The notes beneath the pieces were generated by a model. It saw only the letters and a program-made list of their open reading frames with translations. It was not told the DNA's origin and made no database searches. Shown here piece after piece: positions 8,214-23,915 of a stretch of DNA of 64,000 nt (position 1 is the stretch's first letter; the number at the start of each line of letters is the position of its first letter). Source of the DNA: Christensenellales bacterium (lineage in GTDB: Bacteria; Bacillota; Clostridia; Christensenellales; UBA1431); NCBI GenBank assembly GCA_040766645.1, contig JAXGQA010000001.1:23506-87505 (forward strand), in the 5' to 3' direction. Position numbers and translations under genes: made by a program.

Positions 8214-8636
8214 TCACGCCAGCGCCTCCAGCGCGAGCAGGTACCCTTTGGGGCCAAGGCCGCATATCTGCCCCCGACAGACGGCCGCCGTGACCGAGCG
8301 GTGCCTGAACTCTTCGCGCGCGTGGATGTTGGAAAGATGCACCTCTATGACCGGCGTCGAGATGGCCGCGACGGCATCGCGGATGGCGTAGCTGTAATGC
8401 GTGTACGCGCCGGGGTTGAGTATGACGCCCTGCGCGTTCCCGTGCGCTGCGTGGAGCTTGTCGATGATGTCGCCCTCGGAGTTGAACTGGAAGCATTCCG
8501 CCGCTACGCCCAGCTCTCTGGCGCGGGCGCATATCTCGTCCTCGATTGCCGCCAGCGTCTGCGCCCCGTACACGCCCGGCTCCCGTATGCCCAGCATGTT
8601 CAGGTTGGGGCCGTTTATGATCCATATGTTTTTCAT
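8214..8636 (-). CDS. aroQ: 3-dehydroquinate dehydratase, type II
   Basis: Starts at ATG 8636 with MKNIWIINGPNLNMLGIREPGVYG, and carries ...NPGAYTHYSYAIRDA...EVHLSNIHAREEFR. This is a classic AroQ signature. Confidence 0.93.
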   Translation of the reverse strand: MKNIWIINGPNLNMLGIREPGVYGAQTLAAIEDEICARARELGVAAECFQFNSEGDIIDKLHAAHGNAQGVILNPGAYTHYSYAIRDAVAAISTPVIEVHLSNIHAREEFRHRSVTAAVCRGQICGLGPKGYLLALEALA

Positions 8637-8721
8637 TGCCGCATCCTCCGCTTTGGTATTTGATAAACGCATCGCGCACGTGTTAAACTTGTATCGATCC
8701 GGCGAAAAGGAGGCACATCAC

Positions 8722-9599
8722 ATGCGCGTCGAATTCAACCGGGAAACGCAGCGGCTGGCCGTTATCGGCGACCCCATCGCCCACAGCCTGTCTCCCGTCA
8801 TCCACAATGCACTGTACGGGGCAATGGGCATAAACGCCTTTTACCAGCCTTTATTCGTCCCCAAAGGGCGCATAGAAATCATGAACGACGCCATACCCAT
8901 GCTTTCCCTTCGCGGGTTCAACGTCACCATGCCGCACAAACAGGCCGTCTTCGCGCTGCTGGATGAAGTCGGGTCCAGCGCGCAGCGCCATCAGTCGGTG
9001 AACACGGTCTGCGTGCGGGAGGGAAGGCTTATCGGCCATTCCACCGACGCCCAGGGGTTCGCGCTGGCCCTCGCGGCGCGCGGGTTAGGGTTTGAAGGCC
9101 GCGACGTGGTGATACTGGGCGCGGGCGGCGTGTCCGGCGCGCTGGCGCTGGAAGCCGCGACCAACGGCGCCCGGAGCGTATCCATCCTCAACCGTACCCC
9201 CGAACGCGCGGACGCGCTGGCTTCCCGCGTGAGCCAGCTTTCCGGCGCGCGCGTCCAATCGGCCGGATTCACTGCGCGGGAGCTGGAATTGTTCGCCGCC
9301 AGGGCCACCCTTCTGATAAACGCGACGCCACTGGGGATGGAGGGCTGCGGCGATTTTGTCTCCCTCGTCCTTCTGCGAGCGCTTCCCAAGGACGCCGTGG
9401 TGTGCGACCTCATCTACGACCCGCCGGCCACCAGGCTTTTGGAGGAGGCCCGTGCGCTGGGGCACATTGCCATGAACGGCCTGGGGATGCTCATCATCAG
9501 GCGTTCGCGGCATTCGAGCACTTCTTCGGCGTCATGCCCGGCGATAACGAGCTGCGAGCGGTCCAGGCCGCACTCAAGGCCGAGCGGGGCATCGGTTAA
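8722..9599 (+). pseudogene. aroE: shikimate dehydrogenase, frameshifted near the C-terminus as sequenced
   Basis: MRVEFNRETQRLAVIGDPIAHSLSPVIHN...FNVTMPHKQ...ILGAGGVSGA. After ...NGLGML (about 9490) the conserved tail HQAFAAFEHFFGVMPG...ERGIG continues in the frame of ORF 9402..9599. One base appears to be missing. Confidence 0.85.
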
Positions 9600-10096
9600 A
9601 GCCCGAGCGCATCCCGTATCTTCCGGATGACGTCCTCCACGCTCCCCGCGCCGTCGATGATATGGTCGGCCGACGCGCGGTAGGTTCCGATGCGCGACGT
9701 GTAGAGGCCCAGGAGCCTTTGCTTGCCGTCCTTCAGAAGCGGGCGGTGCCCGGTTTCAATGTCCGATAGAATATTTTCAAGCGGCCTGTCGATGAAAACG
9801 ACAACGCCGCTTGTTTTCATGGCCGCGACGTTTTGGGGGCGCAGCACGCTCCCCCCGCCGGTGGCCACCACCCGACCATCCCCGGCGGCCGCCGCACAGA
9901 TAGCGACGGTTTCCATGTCCCTGAACACCGCTTCCCCGTCCTCTTCGAATATACGGCTTATCGTGCGCCCCGCCGTCTTTTCGATTTCCTCGTCGAGGTC
10001 CAGCGCCGTAAGGCCGGCCGCCTCGGCCAGTGCCCGCGCGATGGTGCTCTTGCCACAGCCCGGCATGCCGGTGAGAAAGACGTTCACCCTACGCAC
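9596..10096 (-). CDS. aroK: shikimate kinase
   Basis: 166 aa. The N-terminus VFLTGMPGCGKSTIARALA contains a Walker A motif. Size is typical. Confidence 0.9.
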   Translation of the reverse strand: MRRVNVFLTGMPGCGKSTIARALAEAAGLTALDLDEEIEKTAGRTISRIFEEDGEAVFRDMETVAICAAAAGDGRVVATGGGSVLRPQNVAAMKTSGVVVFIDRPLENILSDIETGHRPLLKDGKQRLLGLYTSRIGTYRASADHIIDGAGSVEDVIRKIRDALGL

Positions 10097-11204
10097 CTCC
10101 CGCGCTCAGATACCGCCCCAGCACCCGGCAGGACTCGCTCTGTTTTTCGAGAACAGAGAGCACTTTTTCTATGCGCGGGTCGTCCCCGGTACCCTGAAAA
10201 TCGATGAAAAACAGGTATTCCCAGTTGGTGTCCGGAGAAGGCCGCGCTTCCAGGCGCAAAAGGTTGATACCCGCCTCGGCCAGCGGCTTCAACGCCGCGT
10301 ACAGCGTCCCGTGCGTGTTTTTCAGCCGCAGGAGTATGCTCACTTTGTCGCTGGGGCCGGTGTGCGGCTGCGCGGCGATCACGATGAACCGCGTGTGGTT
10401 CCGGCCGGAGTCGTGGATGTCCGGGCAGAGGATGCTAAGGCCGTACCGCTCGGCCGCGTGCCGCCCGGCGATGGCGGCCAGCGTCCTGTCCTTCCGTTCA
10501 GCCACCAACCGCGCGCTGACCGCCGTGTTGTAGTAGGGTATCCGCTCCCAGTCCGGGTGCGCGTCCAGGAACCGCGCGCACTGCTGAAGGCCCTGCGTAT
10601 GGGAATACACCTTTTTTATATCGCCGACATTAGCGCCGGGCACACCCAGCAGGCAGTGCTCAATACGCAGGATGACCTCGCCGGTGATATGGCAGCAATG
10701 CCGTGCCAAAAGCTCGTGCACCTCTATGACGGCGCCGGTGGTGGAATTTTCTATCGGCAGAACGCCGTGCCGCGCCCTGCCATCCAACACGGCCTGTATC
10801 ACGTCCTCGAAGCTGTCAAGAGGCATGCGGTTTTCATTTTCCCCGAAATACGCTATCAGCGCCTCCTCGCCGTACGCGCCGGACACGCCCTGATACGCGG
10901 CGCCCCCGCCGGCCGGGACAACGGCAGCGCGCGGCGCGGGTCCTTGCGTGCGGCGCTGTTCGTCCCGGCTCAGGTTTATCAGAGTGCGGAAAAACGCCTC
11001 CGCGCTGCCTGCCAGCGTTCTGTCCTCCAACCGCGCTACCCGCTCGAGCAGCATGGTCTGCTCGCGCCCGGCGTCCAGCACCGGCAGCCCGTGTTCCTCT
11101 TTGTAGCGCGCTATCTCCCGCGCAATGCGCATGCGTTGCTCGAAAAGCCGCAAAAGCTCCGCGTCCACGGCGTCTATTTGCTGTCGCAGTTCCTCCAGAT
11201 TCAC
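10089..11204 (-). CDS. pheA: bifunctional chorismate mutase / prephenate dehydratase (P-protein) with ACT domain
   Basis: The CM domain is NLEELRQQIDAVDAELLRLFEQRMRIAREIARYK. The PDT domain is AYQGVSGAYGEEA...PIENSTTGAV. The ACT tail is SILLRLKNTHGTLY. The likely start is GTG 11204, which overlaps the aroC stop as GTGA. Confidence 0.88.
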   Translation of the reverse strand: MNLEELRQQIDAVDAELLRLFEQRMRIAREIARYKEEHGLPVLDAGREQTMLLERVARLEDRTLAGSAEAFFRTLINLSRDEQRRTQGPAPRAAVVPAGGGAAYQGVSGAYGEEALIAYFGENENRMPLDSFEDVIQAVLDGRARHGVLPIENSTTGAVIEVHELLARHCCHITGEVILRIEHCLLGVPGANVGDIKKVYSHTQGLQQCARFLDAHPDWERIPYYNTAVSARLVAERKDRTLAAIAGRHAAERYGLSILCPDIHDSGRNHTRFIVIAAQPHTGPSDKVSILLRLKNTHGTLYAALKPLAEAGINLLRLEARPSPDTNWEYLFFIDFQGTGDDPRIEKVLSVLEKQSESCRVLGRYLSAGGA

Positions 11205-12286
11205 GGCCTCACCCCGCTTTCCAGCGCCGCGTCGGCAATGGCGACGAGCACCGCGGCCTCCACGACGCACACGGCGCGGGGCACGATGCAGGCGTCGTGC
11301 CGGCCGGCTATCTCGATTTCGGCATCCGTGCCTTTTTGGAGGTCAACCGTCCTTTGCGGCCGCGCTATGGACGGCGTGGGCTTTATGGCGGCACGCACTA
11401 CGAGGGGCATTCCGTTGGTGATGCCGCCCTGTATCCCGCCGTTATGGTTGGTTGCGGTCACCACCCGCCCGTCCTTATACAGATAGCCTCCGTTGGCATC
11501 AGAGGCGCGCATATCGGCTATTTTAAACCCCGCGCCAAACTCCACGCCCTTGACGGCGGGAACGGAAAACACCAGCGACGCAACGCGGCTCTCCAGCGAA
11601 TCGAAGAACGGGTCGCCCCACCCGGCCGGAAGACCCAGCGCAACGCACTCGACCACACCGCCCACCGAATCCTTTTCCTCCAGCGCCTTCTTAATCGCGT
11701 CCTGCATCGCTGCGCCTCGGGCCGCTTCCAGCACGGGAAACGCGCTTTCTCTCAGCGTTTGCAAAAGTGCCGCGTCCGCGTCATTGAGCGGCGCGTCGTC
11801 CACGCCCCCCAGCCGCGCGATGCGCGCGCCGGCCGTGACGCCCATCTGCGCGAGATACCCCCGCGCCAGCGCGCCCGCGAACACCAGCGGCGCGGTCAGC
11901 CGCCCTGAAAAATGTCCGCCGCCGCGCGCGTCGTTAAAGCCTTCGTATTTGACATAACCGGTGTAGTCCGCGTGTCCCGGACGGGGAAGGGAAGCGAGCG
12001 CCGCGTAATCGCCCGAGCGCGCGTCCGCGTTCTCGATGATACCGCATATGGGGGTGCCGGCCGCGCGGCCGTTCAGCACGCCGCTCACGATGCGCACCTT
12101 GTCGGGTTAGCGCCGCGCGGTGGACATCCAGCTCTGGCCGGGGCGCGCCGCGCCATGTCCGCCGCTATCGCCGCCCCGTCCACCGGCGTGCCGGGCGGCA
12201 GGCCGTCCACCACCATGCCGATGGCCGCGCCGTGCGATCTCGCCGAATATCGTCAGCCGAAGCCTTCTACCCCATGTCCCGCTCAA
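11201..12286 (-). pseudogene. aroC: chorismate synthase carrying three lesions in its first 60 codons as sequenced
   Basis: WGRRLRLTIFGE is in one frame (possible TTG start at 12286). SHGAAIGMVVDGLPPGTPVDGAAIAADMARRAPG is in another frame, entered by an extra base near 12238 and left by a missing G near 12138-12139. Then comes QSWMSTARR, an in-frame TAA (12109-12107) where the conserved Glu of RRE-PD is expected, then PDKVRIVSGVLNG... The remaining 298 aa are intact. Confidence 0.85.
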
Positions 12287-13544
12287 ATGCCTGTCCTCCC
12301 AAACTTCTGAATTCGTCCCAGAACGCCGCCGCCGACTTGCTGACGCACTCCCAGCCGTCGATGACCACGTCCTGATCACAGATGGCCGACGCAACGGCCA
12401 GCGACATGGCCATGCGGTGGTCGTTGTGGCTGCCGCAAACGCCGCCCTTCAGGCGCCCCGTGCCCGCGATGGTCAGGCCGTCCGCGTGCTCGGTGATATC
12501 CGCGCCCAGCGCACGCAGCTCACTGGCGACGGCCGATAAACGGTCGCTCTCTTTCAGGCGGAGCCGCGCGGCGTTGACGATGCGCGTTTCCCCGGTGGCC
12601 GCACAGGCGGCGACAGCCAGCGCCGGTATCAGGTCGGGGATCTGCGCCGCGTCTATCTCGGTGCCCGAAAGGTGCCCGCCGGACACATGGACGCCCTCCG
12701 AGTCCTCGGTCACGTGCGCGCCCATGCGCCGCAGTATGTCCATCGCCGCGCGATCCCCTTGCGCCGTGTCCGGCGGCAGTCCGGTCAGCGTGACCTCCCC
12801 GCCGATGGCTCCGGCCACCAGAAAAAAGGCCGCGTGCGAGTAATCGCCCTCTATCCGCACGCTTTGGGGCACGTACTTCTGGTTCCCGGGCACGCGCAGT
12901 ATGGAATCGTGCAAAAAATCCGAGAAAACGCCGAAAAGCGCCTGCATCCGCCGCGTCATCTCCACGTACCCGCGCGATTCCAGCGGCGAGGTCAGCCGTA
13001 TCTCGGAATCGCCATCAAGCACCGGCAGTACGAACAGCAGCCCGGTCAGAAACTGCGAGGAAACGTTCCCCGGCATTCTGAACACGCCCGGCGTCAGCGC
13101 CCCGGACACGGTGATGCTGTTCCCGTCAGCCTTCCAGCCGATGCCGCGGCTCTCGAACAGCGTGCTGTAGACATCCATGGGCCGTCGCATCAGCCGTCCG
13201 CGGCCCACGAATGTCGCGGGGCCGCCCCCGATGAGCGCCATGGGCAGCAGGAACCGAAGGGTGGAGCCGGACTCCATGCAGTCCACGCGCCGCTCTTTTT
13301 CGGGCGGCATCAGGCCTCCGGTGATGCGCAGCCGACCGCTTTCCGCCTGGGCGGAAACGAGACCGAGCGCACGCAGGCCGTCAAGCGTCGCGCGGACGTC
13401 GTCGGACAGCGCGATATTGTCTATCACCGAAACGCCGACGGCCAGCGCGGCGCAACACAGCGCGCGGTGCGCGGCGCTCTTGGAGGGCTGGACATGAAGT
13501 ATCCCCGACAGCTTCTTTGGAGAAACGGTCATCCAGCCCATCAC
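12267..13544 (-). CDS. aroA: 3-phosphoshikimate 1-carboxyvinyltransferase (EPSP synthase)
   Basis: 425 aa with LSGILHVQPSKSAAHRAL... and ...NDHRMAMSLAVA. Its start overlaps the aroB stop (GTGA at 13541-13544). Confidence 0.92.
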   Translation of the reverse strand: MMGWMTVSPKKLSGILHVQPSKSAAHRALCCAALAVGVSVIDNIALSDDVRATLDGLRALGLVSAQAESGRLRITGGLMPPEKERRVDCMESGSTLRFLLPMALIGGGPATFVGRGRLMRRPMDVYSTLFESRGIGWKADGNSITVSGALTPGVFRMPGNVSSQFLTGLLFVLPVLDGDSEIRLTSPLESRGYVEMTRRMQALFGVFSDFLHDSILRVPGNQKYVPQSVRIEGDYSHAAFFLVAGAIGGEVTLTGLPPDTAQGDRAAMDILRRMGAHVTEDSEGVHVSGGHLSGTEIDAAQIPDLIPALAVAACAATGETRIVNAARLRLKESDRLSAVASELRALGADITEHADGLTIAGTGRLKGGVCGSHNDHRMAMSLAVASAICDQDVVIDGWECVSKSAAAFWDEFRSLGGQAFERDMG

Positions 13545-14635
13545 GCCGCACCCCCGCCCATCAGCGCATACAGTTCGTCCTTGGGCATCCGGTGCAGGCA
13601 GGCCTTCCCGATATCGGTGAGCAGCACGAGGTCGATGTAACCCCCCACGCCTTTTTTATCGACCAGCATGGCTTCGGTCACCGGGCGCAGTTCGGCGGCG
13701 GACGCGACGATGGGCAGGTCCAGCGCTTCCAGCAGGCGGCGGATGCGGCTCGCCGTACCCGCCGGCGTAACGCCCAGCCGCTCGCCCCACCTGGCCGCCT
13801 CGACCATCCCGACGCACACCGCCTCGCCGTGCAGAAGCGTGCCGTACCCCAGCGCCTGCTCCAGCGCGTGGCCCAGCGTGTGCCCGAAGTTAAGTTCCTT
13901 GCGGGCGTCGTTGTCAAACGTATCGCGGCGGACGTAATCGGCCTTTATCGCGCAGCACCGGCTGACGATGCCGGGCATCTCAGCATGAAGCGCGTCCCGC
14001 GAACCGGCGCTTTCCAGCGATTCAAAGAGTTCCGCGTCGAAAATGCAGCCGTACTTGACCACCTCGCCCAGCCCCGCGCCAAATTCGCGCGCGCTCAGCG
14101 TTTTGAGCGCGCCGGTGTCGCACAGGACCAGTTTGGGCTGCGCGAAGACGCCGACAAGGTTCTTCCCCTCGGGCAAATTAACCGCGACCTTGCCGCCTAC
14201 GCTGCTGTCTACCTGCGCAAGCAGCGTCGTCGGGACCTGCACCACGTCCACGCCCCGAAGATACGTTGCGGCCGCGTACCCCGCGAGGTCCCCGACCACG
14301 CCGCCGCCCAGGGCGAATACGCAATCGGCGCGGGTCAGGCCCATCCGGATAAACCGGCTGTACAACGAAAGCAGCGTGCCGTGGCCCTTGCTTTCCTCCC
14401 CCGGCTCTATGACGACGGCCCCGGCCGTCACGCCTGCCCGTTTGAGCGCGCCCATAAGCGCGTCCGCGTACAGCGGCGCGACGTTCTCGTCGGTAACCAC
14501 AGCCGCCCTGCGCCCCGCGAATCCGGACAGATACCGGTCGGCGTTCATGATGGCGCCGTCTTCCACGATGATGTCGTACCGGCTCCCGGCCGCCTCCACT
14601 GTCACACGGTCAGTCATGCGTTCCTCCATGCTCAT
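13541..14635 (-). CDS. aroB: 3-dehydroquinate synthase
   Basis: 364 aa with GEESKGHGTL, ALGGGVVGDLAGYAAATYLRGV, PTTLLAQVDSSVGGK and NFGHTLGHA. Confidence 0.93.
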   Translation of the reverse strand: MSMEERMTDRVTVEAAGSRYDIIVEDGAIMNADRYLSGFAGRRAAVVTDENVAPLYADALMGALKRAGVTAGAVVIEPGEESKGHGTLLSLYSRFIRMGLTRADCVFALGGGVVGDLAGYAAATYLRGVDVVQVPTTLLAQVDSSVGGKVAVNLPEGKNLVGVFAQPKLVLCDTGALKTLSAREFGAGLGEVVKYGCIFDAELFESLESAGSRDALHAEMPGIVSRCCAIKADYVRRDTFDNDARKELNFGHTLGHALEQALGYGTLLHGEAVCVGMVEAARWGERLGVTPAGTASRIRRLLEALDLPIVASAAELRPVTEAMLVDKKGVGGYIDLVLLTDIGKACLHRMPKDELYALMGGGAA

Positions 14636-15648
14636 GCTATTTTGCGCCCCACCACCTGCGCCAGTGCCCGAAGCTGAGTCATCAGCCGGTCAAACTGTTC
14701 GGGCGTCAGGGACTGCTGCCCGTCGCACAGCGCGTTGGCCGGGTCGTTATGGACCTCTATCAAAAGCCCGTCCGCGCCGGCTGCCACCGCGGCGGCGGCC
14801 ATCGACGGCACCAGCCACGCCTTGCCGGTCGCATGGGACGGGTCGACGATGACCGGCAGGTGCGTCATGCGCTTGGCTGACGGGATGGAGCTTAAGTCCA
14901 GCGAATTGCGGGTGAAGCTCTCGAATGTCCGGATGCCGCGCTCGCAGAGTATCACGTTCGGGTTGCCCTGCGCCATGATGTACTCGGCCGACATGATCCA
15001 TTCTTCTATGGTAGAGGACATTCCGCGTTTTAGCAAGATGGGCTTGTTCGTTCGCCCTACCTCCTTGAGCAAATCGAAGTTCTGCATGTTGCGCGTTCCA
15101 ATCTGTATGACGTCCACCATCAGTTCGAACGTTTCCACCTGCCGCGGCGCGACGATCTCGCTGACGATGGGCATGTTCACCTCAGCGCGGACCTTATAAA
15201 GCGTGTCGATGCCCTGCTTTTCAAGGCCCTGGAACGCGTAGGGCGAGGTCCGGGGCTTGTAGGCCCCCCCGCGCAGGGCGACGGCCCCCGACGCCTTGAC
15301 CGCGTGGGCGATGCTGGAAAGCTGCTCGAAGCTCTCCACCGAACACGGCCCCGCGATGACGGCCAGCGCGTTCCCGCCGATTTCGACGTCGCCAACCTGC
15401 ACGACGGTGTCCTCCGGATGGAACTTCCGGTTCGCCTTTTTGTAGGGTTCCGATACCTGCATCACCCGATCCACGCCCTCGCGCAGCTCAAGCTTTTCCC
15501 TATCGAGGGACAGTGTATCCCCCAGCACGCCAAGCACGGTACATTCCACCCCCTTGTTGATCTGCACCTGCATCCCCTTGTCATGCAGTTCCTGAACGAT
15601 GGGCTGTATCTCGTTTTCTGTAGCTTCCGGCTTCATGATAACGATCAT
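14632..15648 (-). CDS. aroF: 3-deoxy-7-phosphoheptulonate (DAHP) synthase, type I-beta, with N-terminal ferredoxin-like regulatory domain
   Basis: MIVIMKPEATENEIQ... forms the N-terminal domain. The catalytic core has AGPCSVES, LRGGAYKPRTSPYAFQG and DPSHATG. ATG 15648 lies 10 nt after GAAAGGAG. The stop overlaps the aroB start as ATGA. Confidence 0.92.
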   Translation of the reverse strand: MIVIMKPEATENEIQPIVQELHDKGMQVQINKGVECTVLGVLGDTLSLDREKLELREGVDRVMQVSEPYKKANRKFHPEDTVVQVGDVEIGGNALAVIAGPCSVESFEQLSSIAHAVKASGAVALRGGAYKPRTSPYAFQGLEKQGIDTLYKVRAEVNMPIVSEIVAPRQVETFELMVDVIQIGTRNMQNFDLLKEVGRTNKPILLKRGMSSTIEEWIMSAEYIMAQGNPNVILCERGIRTFESFTRNSLDLSSIPSAKRMTHLPVIVDPSHATGKAWLVPSMAAAAVAAGADGLLIEVHNDPANALCDGQQSLTPEQFDRLMTQLRALAQVVGRKIA

Positions 15649-15671
15649 GGTCACAGCACTCCTTTCATGCA

Positions 15672-15711
15672 AACAAAAAACCGCGAAGCGCTCATCGCTG
15701 AGCCTTCACGG
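15672..15711 (-). terminator. attenuator terminator between the leader ORF and aroF
   Basis: The minus-strand RNA reads CCGUGAAG-GCUCA-GCGA-UGAGC-G-CUUCGCGG, which is 13 bp with one bulge and a GNRA loop (15711-15681). It is followed by UUUUUUGUUU. The aroF SD follows immediately. Confidence 0.8.
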
Positions 15712-15747
15712 TTAGGACCAGATTATAGCTTCCGCTATGCCATCCTT

Positions 15748-15858
15748 TTACCCGCTCAAAGCCAACGATGTTTTCCTGGTAAACCAAAAGTAGCCGTAGC
15801 CGAAATAGCGGCTAAAGCTGTTAAACCAGAAAAACAAGGTTGTGCAGGATTGCGACAT
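15748..15858 (-). CDS. candidate aro-operon leader peptide, 36 aa, Phe/Trp/Tyr-rich
   Basis: AGGAGG (15873-15868) is followed after 9 nt by ATG 15858. I translated it codon by codon as MSQSCTTLFFWFNSFSRYFGYGYFWFTRKTSLALSG, ending at TAA 15750-15748. It contains 7 Phe, 2 Trp and 3 Tyr, all within codons 9-26. It is below the ORF-track length cut-off. Confidence 0.7.
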   Translation of the reverse strand: MSQSCTTLFFWFNSFSRYFGYGYFWFTRKTSLALSG

Positions 15859-15884
15859 ATACGGATTCCTCCTAGGTTAATCTG

Positions 15885-15913
15885 AGTGTATCATTTTGCT
15901 ATTCAAATTGCAA
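15885..15913 (-). promoter_or_regulatory. candidate sigma-A promoter of the aro leader
   Basis: On the minus strand: TTGCAA (15913-15908), a 17-nt spacer ending in TG, then TACACT (15890-15885). This is an extended -10 configuration. Confidence 0.45.
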
Positions 15914-15944
15914 GAGAAAACTTTTTTAAACTAAAAAATATACT

Positions 15945-17282
15945 GGTACCGTCAAGAAAATTTCGCAAATTTAATTGCCGCCTGGTGGGTGGCAGCTAGC
16001 TGATAGCTGAACCGGCCTCTTCTTTCAACATTTCGTCCAGGTGAGTCATGCTCATATATCGCCTGGTGCCCCAGGCCTTGCCGGCAACGTGCCTGAGCCG
16101 GGCACAGACCAGCATTAGTGCGGATTTACCGTCCGGAAAGGTGCTCACAACACGAGTTCTTCGCCGGATTTCTCGGTTGAGGCGTTCGATGACATTGTTG
16201 CTGCGCAGTTTCGACCAGTGGGCGTAGGGGAAATCCACAGGTCAGGTTTCAAGGATGCTGTCTTCGATCTTTTAGCAGCCTCCTTCAGCTTCATCTCCCG
16301 AAGCTTCGCAGCCACTGCCGCTGCCTTCTCTGGCTGCTTCCTTATTCTCCTGGGCATGAATAGCCTGGAGCATTGCGGCCACCTCTTTCATCTTTGACCT
16401 GGGCGTAACGGAAAACACGTTCCTGTAGAAGTGAACCGTGCAGCGCTGGAACCGGGCATCGGGAAAGGTTTCATTAACAGCTTCCAACAGCCCCAGGCAT
16501 TTGTCTCCGATGAATAGCTGCGTGCCTGCAAGCCCCCTCTGCCTGAGGCTTTTCAGAACTCCTGCCAGCTGGTCTTGTCCTCTTTCATTCCTCAGAAGCG
16601 CCAATCACTTCCCGGAATCCCTCCTCATTGACTGCCATAGCAATCAGAATAGCAACGTTCTCGTACGTGCCGCCCCAGTTGCGTTTGAGATAAATTCCGT
16701 CGACGTACACATAAGGGTATTGCCCTGTAATGGCCGGTTCCGCCACGTCTCGATGTGTCCGTAGACCTTCTGATTCAGATGGCTCACCGTACCGGCTGAT
16801 ACCTTCGTTCCCCAAAGCGCTTCCGTGATGTCTTCCACACGGCGTACCGAGACACCGGCCAGATACATCTCGATCAAGGCTTCTTCCACCGAGCTTTCCC
16901 GGCGCCGGTACGTTCACCAGATAGCGGTTTCAAATGCAACTCCCTTGAGCTGGCATTTTCAGCTTTACATCGCCTGAGGTAGTGGTCAGATCGCGTTCAT
17001 AGTGCCCGAGCGGTACCCCTTGTGGTCTTCCGTCCGTTCATACCGGCCTGCATTCGTCACTTGCTGCTTCCTGGTTTAGCAAGTTATTGAGGGTTTCCTC
17101 CACGCTGTGGCGCACAAGCTCTTTCAACTCCTGCTTTATAGCTCCCTGTTCAGGTGTATATTTTATCGGACACGTTCGCAGCCCCTTTCTGGTGAATGGT
17201 GTGACAACTTATTCTACCAAGCGGCTGCGTCCATGTCCCTTTCTTTATGACGCATTTTCTAATTTGCGCAATTTATGATACC
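15945..17282 (-). mobile_element. IS256-family insertion sequence (about 1.34 kb) with a degraded transposase
   Basis: The ends share an imperfect inverted repeat: GGTACCGTCAAGAAAATTTCGCAAATT at 15945 versus the reverse complement of 17282, GGTATCATAAATTGCGCAAATT. Size is typical of IS256. I could not find a convincing target duplication, so the boundaries are approximate. Confidence 0.7.
15996..17173 (-). pseudogene. IS256-family (mutator-type) transposase broken into at least 5 frame segments
   Basis: Segments in order: TPEQGAIKQELKELVRHSVEETLNNLL; EEALIEMYLAGVSVRRVEDITEALWG; YPYVYVDGIYLKRNWGGTYENVAILIAMAV; LFIGDKCLGLLEAVNETFPDARFQRCTVHFYRNV; DFPYAHWSKLRSNNVIERLNREIRRRTRVV. They are spread over ORFs 16585..16917, 16644..16889, 16272..16604, 16145..16357 and 15996..16238. 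Confidence 0.85.
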
Positions 17283-17467
17283 TTATCTATTCTTTTTTTT
17301 ATAGCAGTTAATCTGATTTCAAATGCATTAGATGTTCAGACGGCTAGAAATTTTACTGATGGATGGATAGAAATTAGCTGGACTATATTTTATAATCTGG
17401 TGTTCGGTGTATATCTATCCTATAAGTATTTTTTTCAATTTTTAAGGCAAAAAATGGTACATTAGTT

Positions 17468-23366: not shown

Positions 23367-23915
23367 ATGACAAACGTTCATGATACAAGTTGCTGTTCAG
23401 GTAGCACAGGGTGCTGTTCATGTGAAACGGGATACTGTGGTCCCGAAGTTCCCAAAAAGGAAATCATTATTGATTTCCTGTATCTGGATTTGAGCGTATG
23501 CACCCGCTGTCAGGGCACGGGAGACAGTCTGGAAGAAGCCGTCGCTGAAGTTGCGAAGGTGCTCGAAGCCGCAAATATGGAAGTTCTGGTCAACAAAGTG
23601 GAAATTGCTGATGCGGAAACGGCCATCCGGCATAAGTTCGTCAGTTCCCCTACCATCCGCATCAACGGGCAGGACATTCAGCTTGATGTGAAAGAAAGCT
23701 TGTGTGAATCTTGCGGCGATCTTTGCGGCACGGATGTGGACTGCCGTGTATGGGTCTATCAGGGAAAGGAATACAGCGTTCCGCCGAAAGCATTGATAAT
23801 CGAAGCGATCCTCAGGGCAATATATGGCGGGAGTCCAAACGCGCCTGTCCGGGACGAAGAATATGTCCTTCCGCAAAACCTTAAAAAATTTTTTTGCTGC
23901 AAAAGAAAAAAGTGA
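23367..23915 (+). CDS. Cys-rich DUF2703-like (thioredoxin-fold-like) protein
   Basis: ATG 23367 follows GGAGAGGG. The N-terminus is CCSGSTGCCSCETGYC, followed by YLDLSVCTRCQGT, CESCGDLC..DC and a C-terminal FFCCKRKK. The family assignment is from memory of the YLDL..C.RC motif. Confidence 0.5.
   Translation: MTNVHDTSCCSGSTGCCSCETGYCGPEVPKKEIIIDFLYLDLSVCTRCQGTGDSLEEAVAEVAKVLEAANMEVLVNKVEIADAETAIRHKFVSSPTIRINGQDIQLDVKESLCESCGDLCGTDVDCRVWVYQGKEYSVPPKALIIEAILRAIYGGSPNAPVRDEEYVLPQNLKKFFCCKRKK

Follow-up and report, generated by a model that had tools for sequence, protein, structure and literature searches.

In a 64-kb stretch of DNA from a Christensenellales bacterium (positions 23,506 to 87,505 of contig JAXGQA010000001.1, assembly GCA_040766645.1; the whole stretch is called the window below), we analyzed the leader of the aromatic biosynthesis operon aroF-aroB-aroA-aroC-pheA-aroK, which lies with all of its leader elements on the minus strand. 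A short open reading frame (ORF) rich in phenylalanine, tyrosine and tryptophan codons precedes aroF, and we consider it likely, judging from the sequence and from folding models, that this leader is a ribosome-mediated (leader-peptide) transcription attenuator of the operon. A candidate promoter, a Shine-Dalgarno (SD) site, the aromatic upstream ORF (uORF), a predicted antiterminator that overlaps the 5′ arm of a terminator, the terminator itself and aroF follow one another in this order, the trp/phe/his-type layout that an earlier note, made from the letters of this DNA alone, had described.

The candidate promoter, of the sigma-70 type and read from the sequence, occupies positions 15885–15913 and comprises a −35 box TTGCAA (15913–15908), a 17-nt spacer, a TG extension (15893–15892) and a −10 box TACACT (15890–15885). 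A consensus promoter scanner scored this TTGCAA/TACACT site below its threshold. Most related loci carry a strong cTTGCAA-17-TATAAT promoter whose −10 box ends about 29–33 nt ahead of the uORF ATG, and the window promoter, TTGCAA-17-TGaTACACT, stands at the homologous position, at a distance of 26 nt from the uORF ATG. The conserved cTTGCAAtt-17-TATAAT promoter often has an A run ahead of it (e.g., in loci L033, L036, L046 and L057). Downstream, the SD site AGGAGG (15868–15873) is separated by a 9-nt spacer from the ATG at 15858, and most related loci likewise have an SD-like site ahead of the uORF. The uORF (15748–15858) has 36 codons, MSQSCTTLFFWFNSFSRYFGYGYFWFTRKTSLALSG, and ends in TAA at 15750–15748. 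Its putative regulatory run, codons 9–26 (15781–15834), holds 12 aromatic codons among 18, namely 7 Phe (5 UUU, 2 UUC), 3 Tyr and 2 Trp. The promoter, the SD site with its spacer, the limits of the ORF and its aromatic count had all been reported in the earlier note, and each was recovered here by inspection and translation.

This aromatic run is exceptional within the window. When 88,812 stop-free segments of 18 codons were counted over the six frames of the 64 kb, all segments with at least 10 aromatic residues lay inside the leader ORF, and the binomial probability of its aromatic content was about 5e-12, with the rate set to that of the aro proteins, which are 5% aromatic. At least 9 aromatic residues in 18 codons occurred in just one further ORF, at 17247–17465 on the plus strand (72 aa, stretch FYNLVFGVYLSYKYFFQF, 9/18); it had no Pfam match and probably either encodes a small membrane protein or is spurious. 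UUU accounts for 5 of the 7 Phe codons of the leader, and the genes of the operon prefer UUC (31 UUC vs 14 UUU); in GC-rich relatives, too, the leaders mostly use UUU and UAU. The preference for UUU may reflect slow wobble decoding or a need for U runs, the sample being small.

Similar leaders were found ahead of aroF in many other species. A scan with one genome per species yielded 80 species-level aroF loci (AroF 59–79% identical), and in 56 of them a short ORF rich in aromatic codons precedes aroF, with a hairpin and a U tract between the two. An SD-preceded uORF with at least 6 aromatic residues in 18 codons was present within the 300 nt upstream in 46 of the 79 testable loci (those with enough upstream sequence), compared with 0/79 reverse complements and 0/79 equal-sized pieces taken within aroF. 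The conservation of the small ORF and of its aromatic bias, which the earlier note had proposed to check in homologous loci, is therefore borne out. The leader-bearing taxa include Christensenellaceae, Oscillospiraceae (Flavonifractor, Lawsonibacter, Intestinimonas and others), Clostridium, Phascolarctobacterium bins, an Acholeplasmataceae bin and others. Three other assemblies (L001–L003) encode an identical AroF protein behind the same leader, and in two of them the 36-aa gene has been called. Because 56 of the 80 aroF loci carry the uORF and the terminator, the element is not unusual in this part of the Firmicutes; the earlier note had expected a ribosome-stalling attenuator to be so, and most of the aroF loci retrieved from Clostridia turned out to have it.

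The leader peptides follow the approximate pattern S-F-x-F-x-phi-[GS]-W-x-[R/F/Y]-F-x-G-x-G-[Y/F]-F-x-x-[E/K]-K, which the window peptide fits. A DNA profile made from the codon-aligned uORFs of the other loci had a single match in the 64 kb, at 15844–15782 on the minus strand (E = 3.5e-8), and the site was still recovered when the five most similar leaders were left out as well (E = 2.8e-6). These statistics bear on the possibility that the uORF is a chance ORF beside an ordinary upstream terminator, for instance that of an insertion sequence (IS) remnant of the IS256 family or of a neighbouring gene. A degenerate IS256-family transposase does lie directly upstream. Its boundary falls at about 15944, and assemblies without this insertion have the same promoter, leader and terminator; near-identity with the sister assemblies L001 and L002 starts again at 15944 and runs on downstream, so that the promoter is native and lies outside the remnant. 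The conservation statistics and the window-wide test for aromatic outliers rule the chance explanation out, and we regard it as almost certainly wrong.

An intrinsic terminator hairpin, AACCGUGAAGGCUCA-GCGA-UGAGCGCUUCGCGGUU, begins 34 nt past the uORF stop and spans 15679–15713 (−22.7 kcal/mol, one bulge), with its 5′ arm at 15713–15699, the GCGA loop at 15698–15695 and the 3′ arm at 15694–15679. On either side it extends 2 nt further than the earlier note had given (15711–15681). A U6GU3 tract, UUUUUUGUUU (15671–15680), comes after it, its first two U also forming part of the stem. The aroF SD and ATG 15648 come directly after the terminator, as had been noted before. A terminator follows the uORF in all 56 leader-bearing loci. 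Among 28 Oscillospiraceae-type leaders, compensatory changes occurred in 8 of the 17 pairs of the predicted consensus structure (13 of the 17 lying in the terminator stem), and the 5′ arm keeps GCUCA.

In predicted minimum free energy (MFE) folds, a long hairpin encloses the aromatic run. Its 5′ strand, segment 1 (CAAC..UGUUUUUCUGGU, codons 6–12, 15825–15842), pairs with its 3′ strand, segment 2 (ACCAGGAAAACA..GUUG, codons 27–32, 15763–15780). The outer helix of the window thus consists of UUGUUUUUCUGGU with ACCAGGAAAACA, extended by CAAC with GUUG, and joins N-terminal codons of the uORF with its last ones. Codons 30–36, AUCGUUGGCUUUGAGCGGG (15751–15769), form the 5′ strand of the antiterminator, which is predicted to pair with the terminator 5′ arm and loop (15713–15695). 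The 3′ end of segment 2 overlaps this antiterminator strand, in the window only at GUUG. The antiterminator duplex reaches −19.4 kcal/mol, and its own strand is the best partner for this arm among all 56 leaders. Across loci, segment 1:2 duplexes were more stable within a locus than between loci (mean −19.5 vs −12.9 kcal/mol; permutation p ≤ 1e-4), and so were segment 2:3 duplexes (mean −14.4 vs −11.5 kcal/mol; permutation p ≤ 1e-4). In 43 of the 56 loci the best partner of the arm lay where a ribosome at the stop codon would cover it, compared with 20.3 expected, and none of 200,000 simulations reached 43.

In folds in which the RNA covered by a ribosome was masked, the predicted antiterminator persisted with the ribosomal A site at positions up to codon 27–28, whereas it no longer formed with the A site anywhere between codon 29 and the stop. 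The aromatic run, which closes with codon 26, thus stops just short of the positions at which a ribosome would begin to cover the antiterminator strand. Sequestering energies of the terminator 5′ arm were computed on transcripts cut ahead of the terminator 3′ arm, because, when the whole leader was folded at equilibrium under ribosome masks, the ribosome positions could not be told apart. In the window, the energy was −12.7 kcal/mol on average with the A site on aromatic codons and −5.7 kcal/mol at the stop codon; over the 56 loci the means were −8.8 and −4.7 kcal/mol, respectively, with a difference above 2 kcal/mol in 43 loci.

The mutually exclusive pairings that the earlier note had drawn by eye stood in part. 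Folding does predict antiterminator and terminator as alternatives, and the proposed pairing of codons 30–32 with the terminator apex forms part of the predicted antiterminator; the details of pairing differ from the sketch. The pairing proposed between codons 14–18 and the spacer past the stop exists in the sequence and is not used in the predicted folds. As a conserved part of the switch, the pairing of codons 14–18 with AUAGCGGAAGCU was rejected, since the folds do not use it and the 14-nt spacer at that place in L004, the closest relative, is unrelated. Similarly, the central conserved block CUCGAUUUAUGGGCGCC was tried as a general antiterminator strand and was the best partner only in L057, L071 and L074; it was rejected as a general rule because, on inspection, lineages with the terminator GCUCAUGGA cannot use it.

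Several results weigh against an attenuator of this kind. With the full terminator present, about 95% of the molecules adopt the terminator at equilibrium, whatever the ribosome position. As the terminator always wins at equilibrium, the choice must be kinetic, as in the classical systems. The untranslated window leader, folded as truncated RNA, is predicted to form the core of the outer hairpin and the antiterminator together, so that the classical branch in which lack of translation leads to termination is unsupported here. The energy gap between stalled and stop-codon ribosomes is partly a length effect, because an upstream ribosome leaves more downstream RNA free; the positional and permutation tests therefore weigh more. 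Taken singly, the antiterminator duplexes were modestly better than shuffles (mean z = −1.25), and neither the permutation nor the shuffle tests correct for phylogeny. Run on MAFFT alignments of 28 and of 13 leaders, RNAalifold returned the terminator and the central hairpin of the uORF (see below), and neither 1:2 nor 2:3 helices. This miss arises because indels misalign the helices, which is why own-versus-cross duplex permutation tests were used. Additionally, DNA profiles built with one group left out at a time failed to connect the Acholeplasmataceae, Christensenella or Tyr-rich leaders with the others, and the profile likeness between lineages could partly reflect shared U-rich aromatic codons rather than common descent.

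From the elements, their conservation and covariation and the predicted folds, we infer ribosome stalling, coupling of translation to transcription and a response to amino-acid supply, which would operate as follows. Transcription would start about 20 nt ahead of AGGAGG, and a ribosome would translate the 36-codon leader while RNA polymerase heads for the terminator. If charged tRNA-Phe, tRNA-Tyr or tRNA-Trp were scarce, the ribosome would stall within codons 9–26, keep the long hairpin open and leave codons 30–36 (AUCGUUGGCUUUGAGCGGG) free. These could pair with the terminator 5′ arm (AAGGCUCAGCGAU) once it is made, so that no terminator would form and the operon would be transcribed. If the aromatic tRNAs were charged, the ribosome would reach codons 29–37 and the stop and cover the antiterminator strand, whereupon the 35-nt hairpin and the U tract would form and transcription would end ahead of aroF.

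The family alignment speaks to whether the codons matter as codons. At the aromatic columns, 86 of 154 non-majority residues were also aromatic, that is, F/Y/W exchanges; among the single-base neighbours of a Phe codon, only about 1 in 8 is aromatic. One column consisted of 38 F and 18 Y and nothing else, and another of 31 W, 12 F and 6 Y, where a change from W to F takes two base changes. The start codon, the SD site and the open frame are kept across the 56 loci despite widely differing nucleotide sequences. The aromatic exchanges and the persistence of start codon, SD and frame point to selection on codon meaning.

These observations also bear on the possibility of a leader that works as RNA only or with a bound protein (an unrecognized riboswitch, or a T-box-like or TRAP-like element), in which the ORF would be incidental and the apparent peptide would reflect conservation of the RNA. 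Nucleotide conservation is strong, third codon positions included, and hairpins are conserved, as such a leader would have it. The conservation of start codon, SD and frame among sequences that differ so widely argues against it, as does the interchange of F, Y and W at fixed columns, which requires non-conservative base changes, and so does the stop codon, which stands in a fixed relation to the antiterminator strand. No Rfam 15 family matched the leader, either in the window (E ≤ 10) or in 20 relatives at gathering thresholds, although Rfam could simply lack such a family. The T-box model RF00230 had no match in the window at its gathering threshold or at E ≤ 10, and in 15400–16200 no covariance model match was obtained for Phe_leader, Trp_leader, leu/phe-leader or other Rfam leader families, the only match at E ≤ 10 being a spurious mir-492 inside aroF. 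TRAP-regulated leaders of the Bacillus trp type carry about 9–11 (G/U)AG triplets, 2–3 nt apart and overlapping the antiterminator; the 260 nt examined here hold only 7 scattered (G/U)AG triplets with irregular spacing, and no TRAP-type repeat array. The T-box or protein-bound alternative named in the earlier note was checked in this way, and no T-box or other Rfam model fits the leader RNA. We therefore regard an RNA-only or protein-bound leader as very unlikely.

Within the coding sequence lies a second, shorter hairpin. This central hairpin, AGCU-U-UAGCCG / loop CUAUUU / CGGCUA-C-GGCU (15792–15819), has a folding energy of −13.6 kcal/mol (z = −4.3 vs shuffles); across the 56 loci its mean z was −3.2, and z fell below −1.5 in 50 loci. 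Covariation was assessed in an ungapped, codon-anchored alignment of 48 sequences (A5). There, 78% of the cells were paired, compared with 70% in shuffles and 27–53% with the partner slid by 1–3 columns; 55 cells showed double changes, compared with 25 expected, and none of 500 shuffles reached the observed values. Compensatory changes were present in 7 of the 11 pairs. Directly 3′ of the hairpin lies a U-rich run, ACUUUUGGUUU (15781–15791), read as Tyr-Phe-Trp-Phe. In most loci the U run, coding Tyr-Phe, is UAUUUUGG, where the window has ACUUUUGGUUU, and its family columns are T in at least 90% of the sequences. The covarying 11-bp hairpin with its U-rich loop, together with the U run (15781–15819), resembles a hairpin-dependent polymerase pause or a weak terminator. 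It is possible that hairpin and U run are an RNA polymerase pause element that would synchronize ribosome and polymerase.

The hairpin is relevant to a nascent-peptide arrest sensor of the TnaC/SecM type, in which the core S-F-x-F...[GS]-W-x-R-F-x-G-x-G-Y-F...K would act in the exit tunnel and possibly sense free aromatic amino acids, tRNA charging not being the signal. The peptides do align as one family from Christensenellales to Clostridium, and non-aromatic Gly, Lys and Arg positions are conserved (Gly in 50/56, Lys in 35/51 and Arg in 36/53 sequences). These non-aromatic codons are conserved as nucleotides, however: Arg is CGA in 33/36, Gly is GGC in 43/50 and Lys is AAA in 34/35 leaders. 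As the codons for Arg and Gly lie in the stem or loop of the covarying hairpin, RNA constraint explains at least these two, and RNA structure accounts for at least part of the nucleotide constraint. Other lineages have Phe or Tyr in place of Arg, and in the window the Arg codon is CGC. Moreover, with the geometry of this leader a stall caused by an abundant amino acid would lead to read-through, the opposite of what a biosynthetic operon needs, and the shift to Tyr ahead of tyrA operons (described below) fits codon counting rather than a fixed arrest motif. An arrest sensor is thus highly unlikely. In the 28 aligned Oscillospiraceae-type leaders, CGAUUU is invariant (28/28; e.g., L023:2297–2395 and L033:2299–2394). 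The central hairpin accounts for only part of this constraint and of that on the Arg, Gly and Lys codons.

Codon composition was then compared with operon content. All five leaders with more Tyr than Phe codons (L010, L024, L048, L064 and L068) stand ahead of aroF-tyrA operons, tyrA encoding prephenate dehydrogenase, whereas this context was found for 1 of 49 other leaders (Fisher p = 1.9e-6). The five Tyr-rich leaders represent about three independent lineages, and their uORFs lie about 100–280 nt upstream of aroF. Phe/Trp-rich leaders stand ahead of aroF-aroB-aroA. Both kinds occur in Lawsonibacter faecis NSJ-52, which has two aroF paralogues: a leader of the Phe/Trp type (L016) precedes aroF-aroB, and the leader MCRNFGYGYGYYRYYFSGYFACP (L024) precedes aroF-tyrA. 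The window operon contains pheA, and its leader is dominated by Phe (7 F, 3 Y, 2 W). In two loci a T-box (124 bits) stands directly ahead of aroF and there is no uORF: L027:2232–2465, from an Erysipelotrichaceae-labelled bin, and L061:2206–2454, from Massilimicrobiota timonensis. A T-box also senses tRNA charging. A second T-box lies further upstream in L061, at 813–1060.

The uORF might instead encode a functional hydrophobic micro-protein, or only boost aroF translation by coupling or re-initiation, with no role in termination. Database homologues exist as 'hypothetical protein' genes: the family profile search returned 75 database clusters with no Pfam domain, named 'hypothetical protein' at best, and no NCBIfam match was obtained at E ≤ 10 for five family peptides. 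Leader ORFs have also been proposed to raise downstream translation by re-initiation (PMC4833913). A strong terminator always stands between uORF and aroF, though, and in the window the uORF stop is 99 nt from the start of aroF, which has its own SD. The length and termini of the peptide vary freely, and the aromatic core and the RNA pairings alone are kept. On this evidence, a role confined to a micro-protein or to re-initiation is extremely unlikely.

The operon that the attenuator would control was confirmed by NCBIfam matches as one minus-strand string of genes, as the earlier note had listed them. It begins with aroF, encoding DAHP (3-deoxy-D-arabino-heptulosonate 7-phosphate) synthase (14632–15665; SD 15665–15659, ATG 15648, stop 14632; NF006421, E = 5e-152), and the remainder downstream spans 9596–14635 with aroB (dehydroquinate synthase, 14635–13541), aroA (EPSP, or 5-enolpyruvylshikimate-3-phosphate, synthase, 13544–12267), aroC (chorismate synthase, about 12286–11201), pheA (chorismate mutase/prephenate dehydratase, 11270–10089) and aroK (shikimate kinase, 10096–9596). 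Relative to GCA_030153585.1, aroC is split into two ORFs by two 1-nt indels (at about 12239 and about 12143, one of them in a C run). Just past the end of the operon lie aroQ (type II dehydroquinase, 8214–8672, minus strand) and aroE (shikimate dehydrogenase, about 8760–9630, plus strand). They are divergent from each other, and aroE is convergent with aroK, so neither belongs to the transcript that would be attenuated. We also considered whether a frameshifted aroE lies between aroK and aroQ and rejected this, aroE being intact on the plus strand. Directly upstream of the aroF promoter, the degenerate IS256/Mutator-family transposase spans 15944–17283 in three frames, with ORF fragments on the minus strand at 15996–16238, 16272–16604 and 16585–16917. 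The indels in aroC and the fragmentation of the transposase may be homopolymer assembly errors or real decay. At the site of the transposase, L001 and L002 carry a different 960-nt segment, and L003 apparently has yet another sequence; these three differing upstream segments mark a strain-variable spot.

The proposed mechanism and its target gene both have precedents. As is proposed for the window leader, the E. coli attenuators pheL-pheA, trpL-trpEDCBA and pheM-pheST have a short translated leader rich in codons for the end product and then a terminator, with an antiterminator overlapping the terminator 5′ arm, a fold decided by ribosome position and an upstream hairpin over the regulatory codons. 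The window leader differs from them in having no sequence or covariance-model similarity to them and in its host, a Clostridia-type Firmicute; it mixes Phe, Tyr and Trp codons and precedes a common-pathway operon that starts from DAHP synthase. Its regulatory codons are spread over 18 positions round a conserved internal hairpin rather than set in a tight tandem run, and, unlike that of E. coli trp, its untranslated state is not clearly terminating.

Closer in target is the aroR leader peptide of Corynebacterium glutamicum, which contains Phe-Tyr-Phe and attenuates the aroF operon (Neshat 2014, as summarized in PMC11802643); according to that summary, read-through rises under Phe limitation and Tyr is reportedly without effect. 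Likened by this description, aroR-aroF shares with the window leader the first gene, for DAHP synthase, and the proposed mechanism. It differs in belonging to the Actinobacteria and in having a three-codon aromatic motif only, and homology is not expected. The uORFC-13-1 motif (Brewer 2021) has 24 representatives in Acholeplasma and unassigned environmental sequences, exclusively upstream of aroF, and comprises −35 and −10 boxes, a ribosome-binding site, a start codon, a Phe-coding U run, an adjacent terminator stem and 'another base-paired substructure' (PMC8632094). It was proposed to attenuate through Phe-dependent ribosome speed, Phe being the only amino acid discussed (PMC8632094). Compared by its published description, it shares with the window leader the position ahead of aroF, the uORF, the Phe-coding U run and the adjacent terminator. 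The motif is not in Rfam 15. L048, the sole Acholeplasmataceae leader in our set, aligns as a family peptide and has the central hairpin, and the DNA profile of the other lineages did not detect it.

T-box leaders (RF00230) ahead of aromatic biosynthesis genes in Firmicutes occupy the same position as the uORF leader and have the task proposed for it, relaying tRNA charging to a terminator; they differ in binding uncharged tRNA directly, with no need for translation, and the window has none. In Clostridioides difficile, a premature transcription termination event was reported in the aroF 5′ untranslated region and assigned to no known riboregulator (Fuchs 2021, PMC8237595). By that description the case is alike, with a short terminated transcript upstream of aroF in Clostridia. 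In 2010, 'regular' leader peptides were essentially unknown in Firmicutes (Naville and Gautheret 2010, PMC2965389). We found no description of how widely this family occurs in Clostridia, of its three-amino-acid composition, of its product-matched variants or of the hairpin inside the uORF.

Textbooks present attenuation as mainly proteobacterial and actinobacterial and lead one to expect T-boxes or TRAP in Firmicutes. Tentatively, and as one possibility among others, the leaders may form a large uncurated family through which Clostridia-type bacteria, among them many gut Oscillospiraceae, Christensenellaceae and Clostridium, chiefly control the aromatic pathway. Their codons might be tuned to the product, with Phe/Trp-rich leaders for common-pathway and pheA operons and Tyr-rich leaders for aroF-tyrA, and the covarying hairpin and U run inside the coding sequence could serve as a ribosome-releasable pause or mini-terminator, making a two-checkpoint attenuator. 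If true, the product-tuned codon composition and the two checkpoints would go beyond the textbook attenuator. The mechanism itself will not surprise a specialist; the distribution and the product-matched codons are worth a comparative-genomics note, and the Tyr-rich leaders ahead of tyrA would be a natural demonstration of attenuation logic. For annotation, a leader-peptide label could replace dozens of 'hypothetical protein' calls, and for engineering the leaders could offer compact natural switches responsive to Phe, Tyr and Trp. Classical ribosome-mediated attenuation would then be a device that Clostridia commonly use at the first step of aromatic synthesis, giving a testable regulatory model for a pathway of gut anaerobes whose products, the aromatic amino acids, feed many host-active metabolites.

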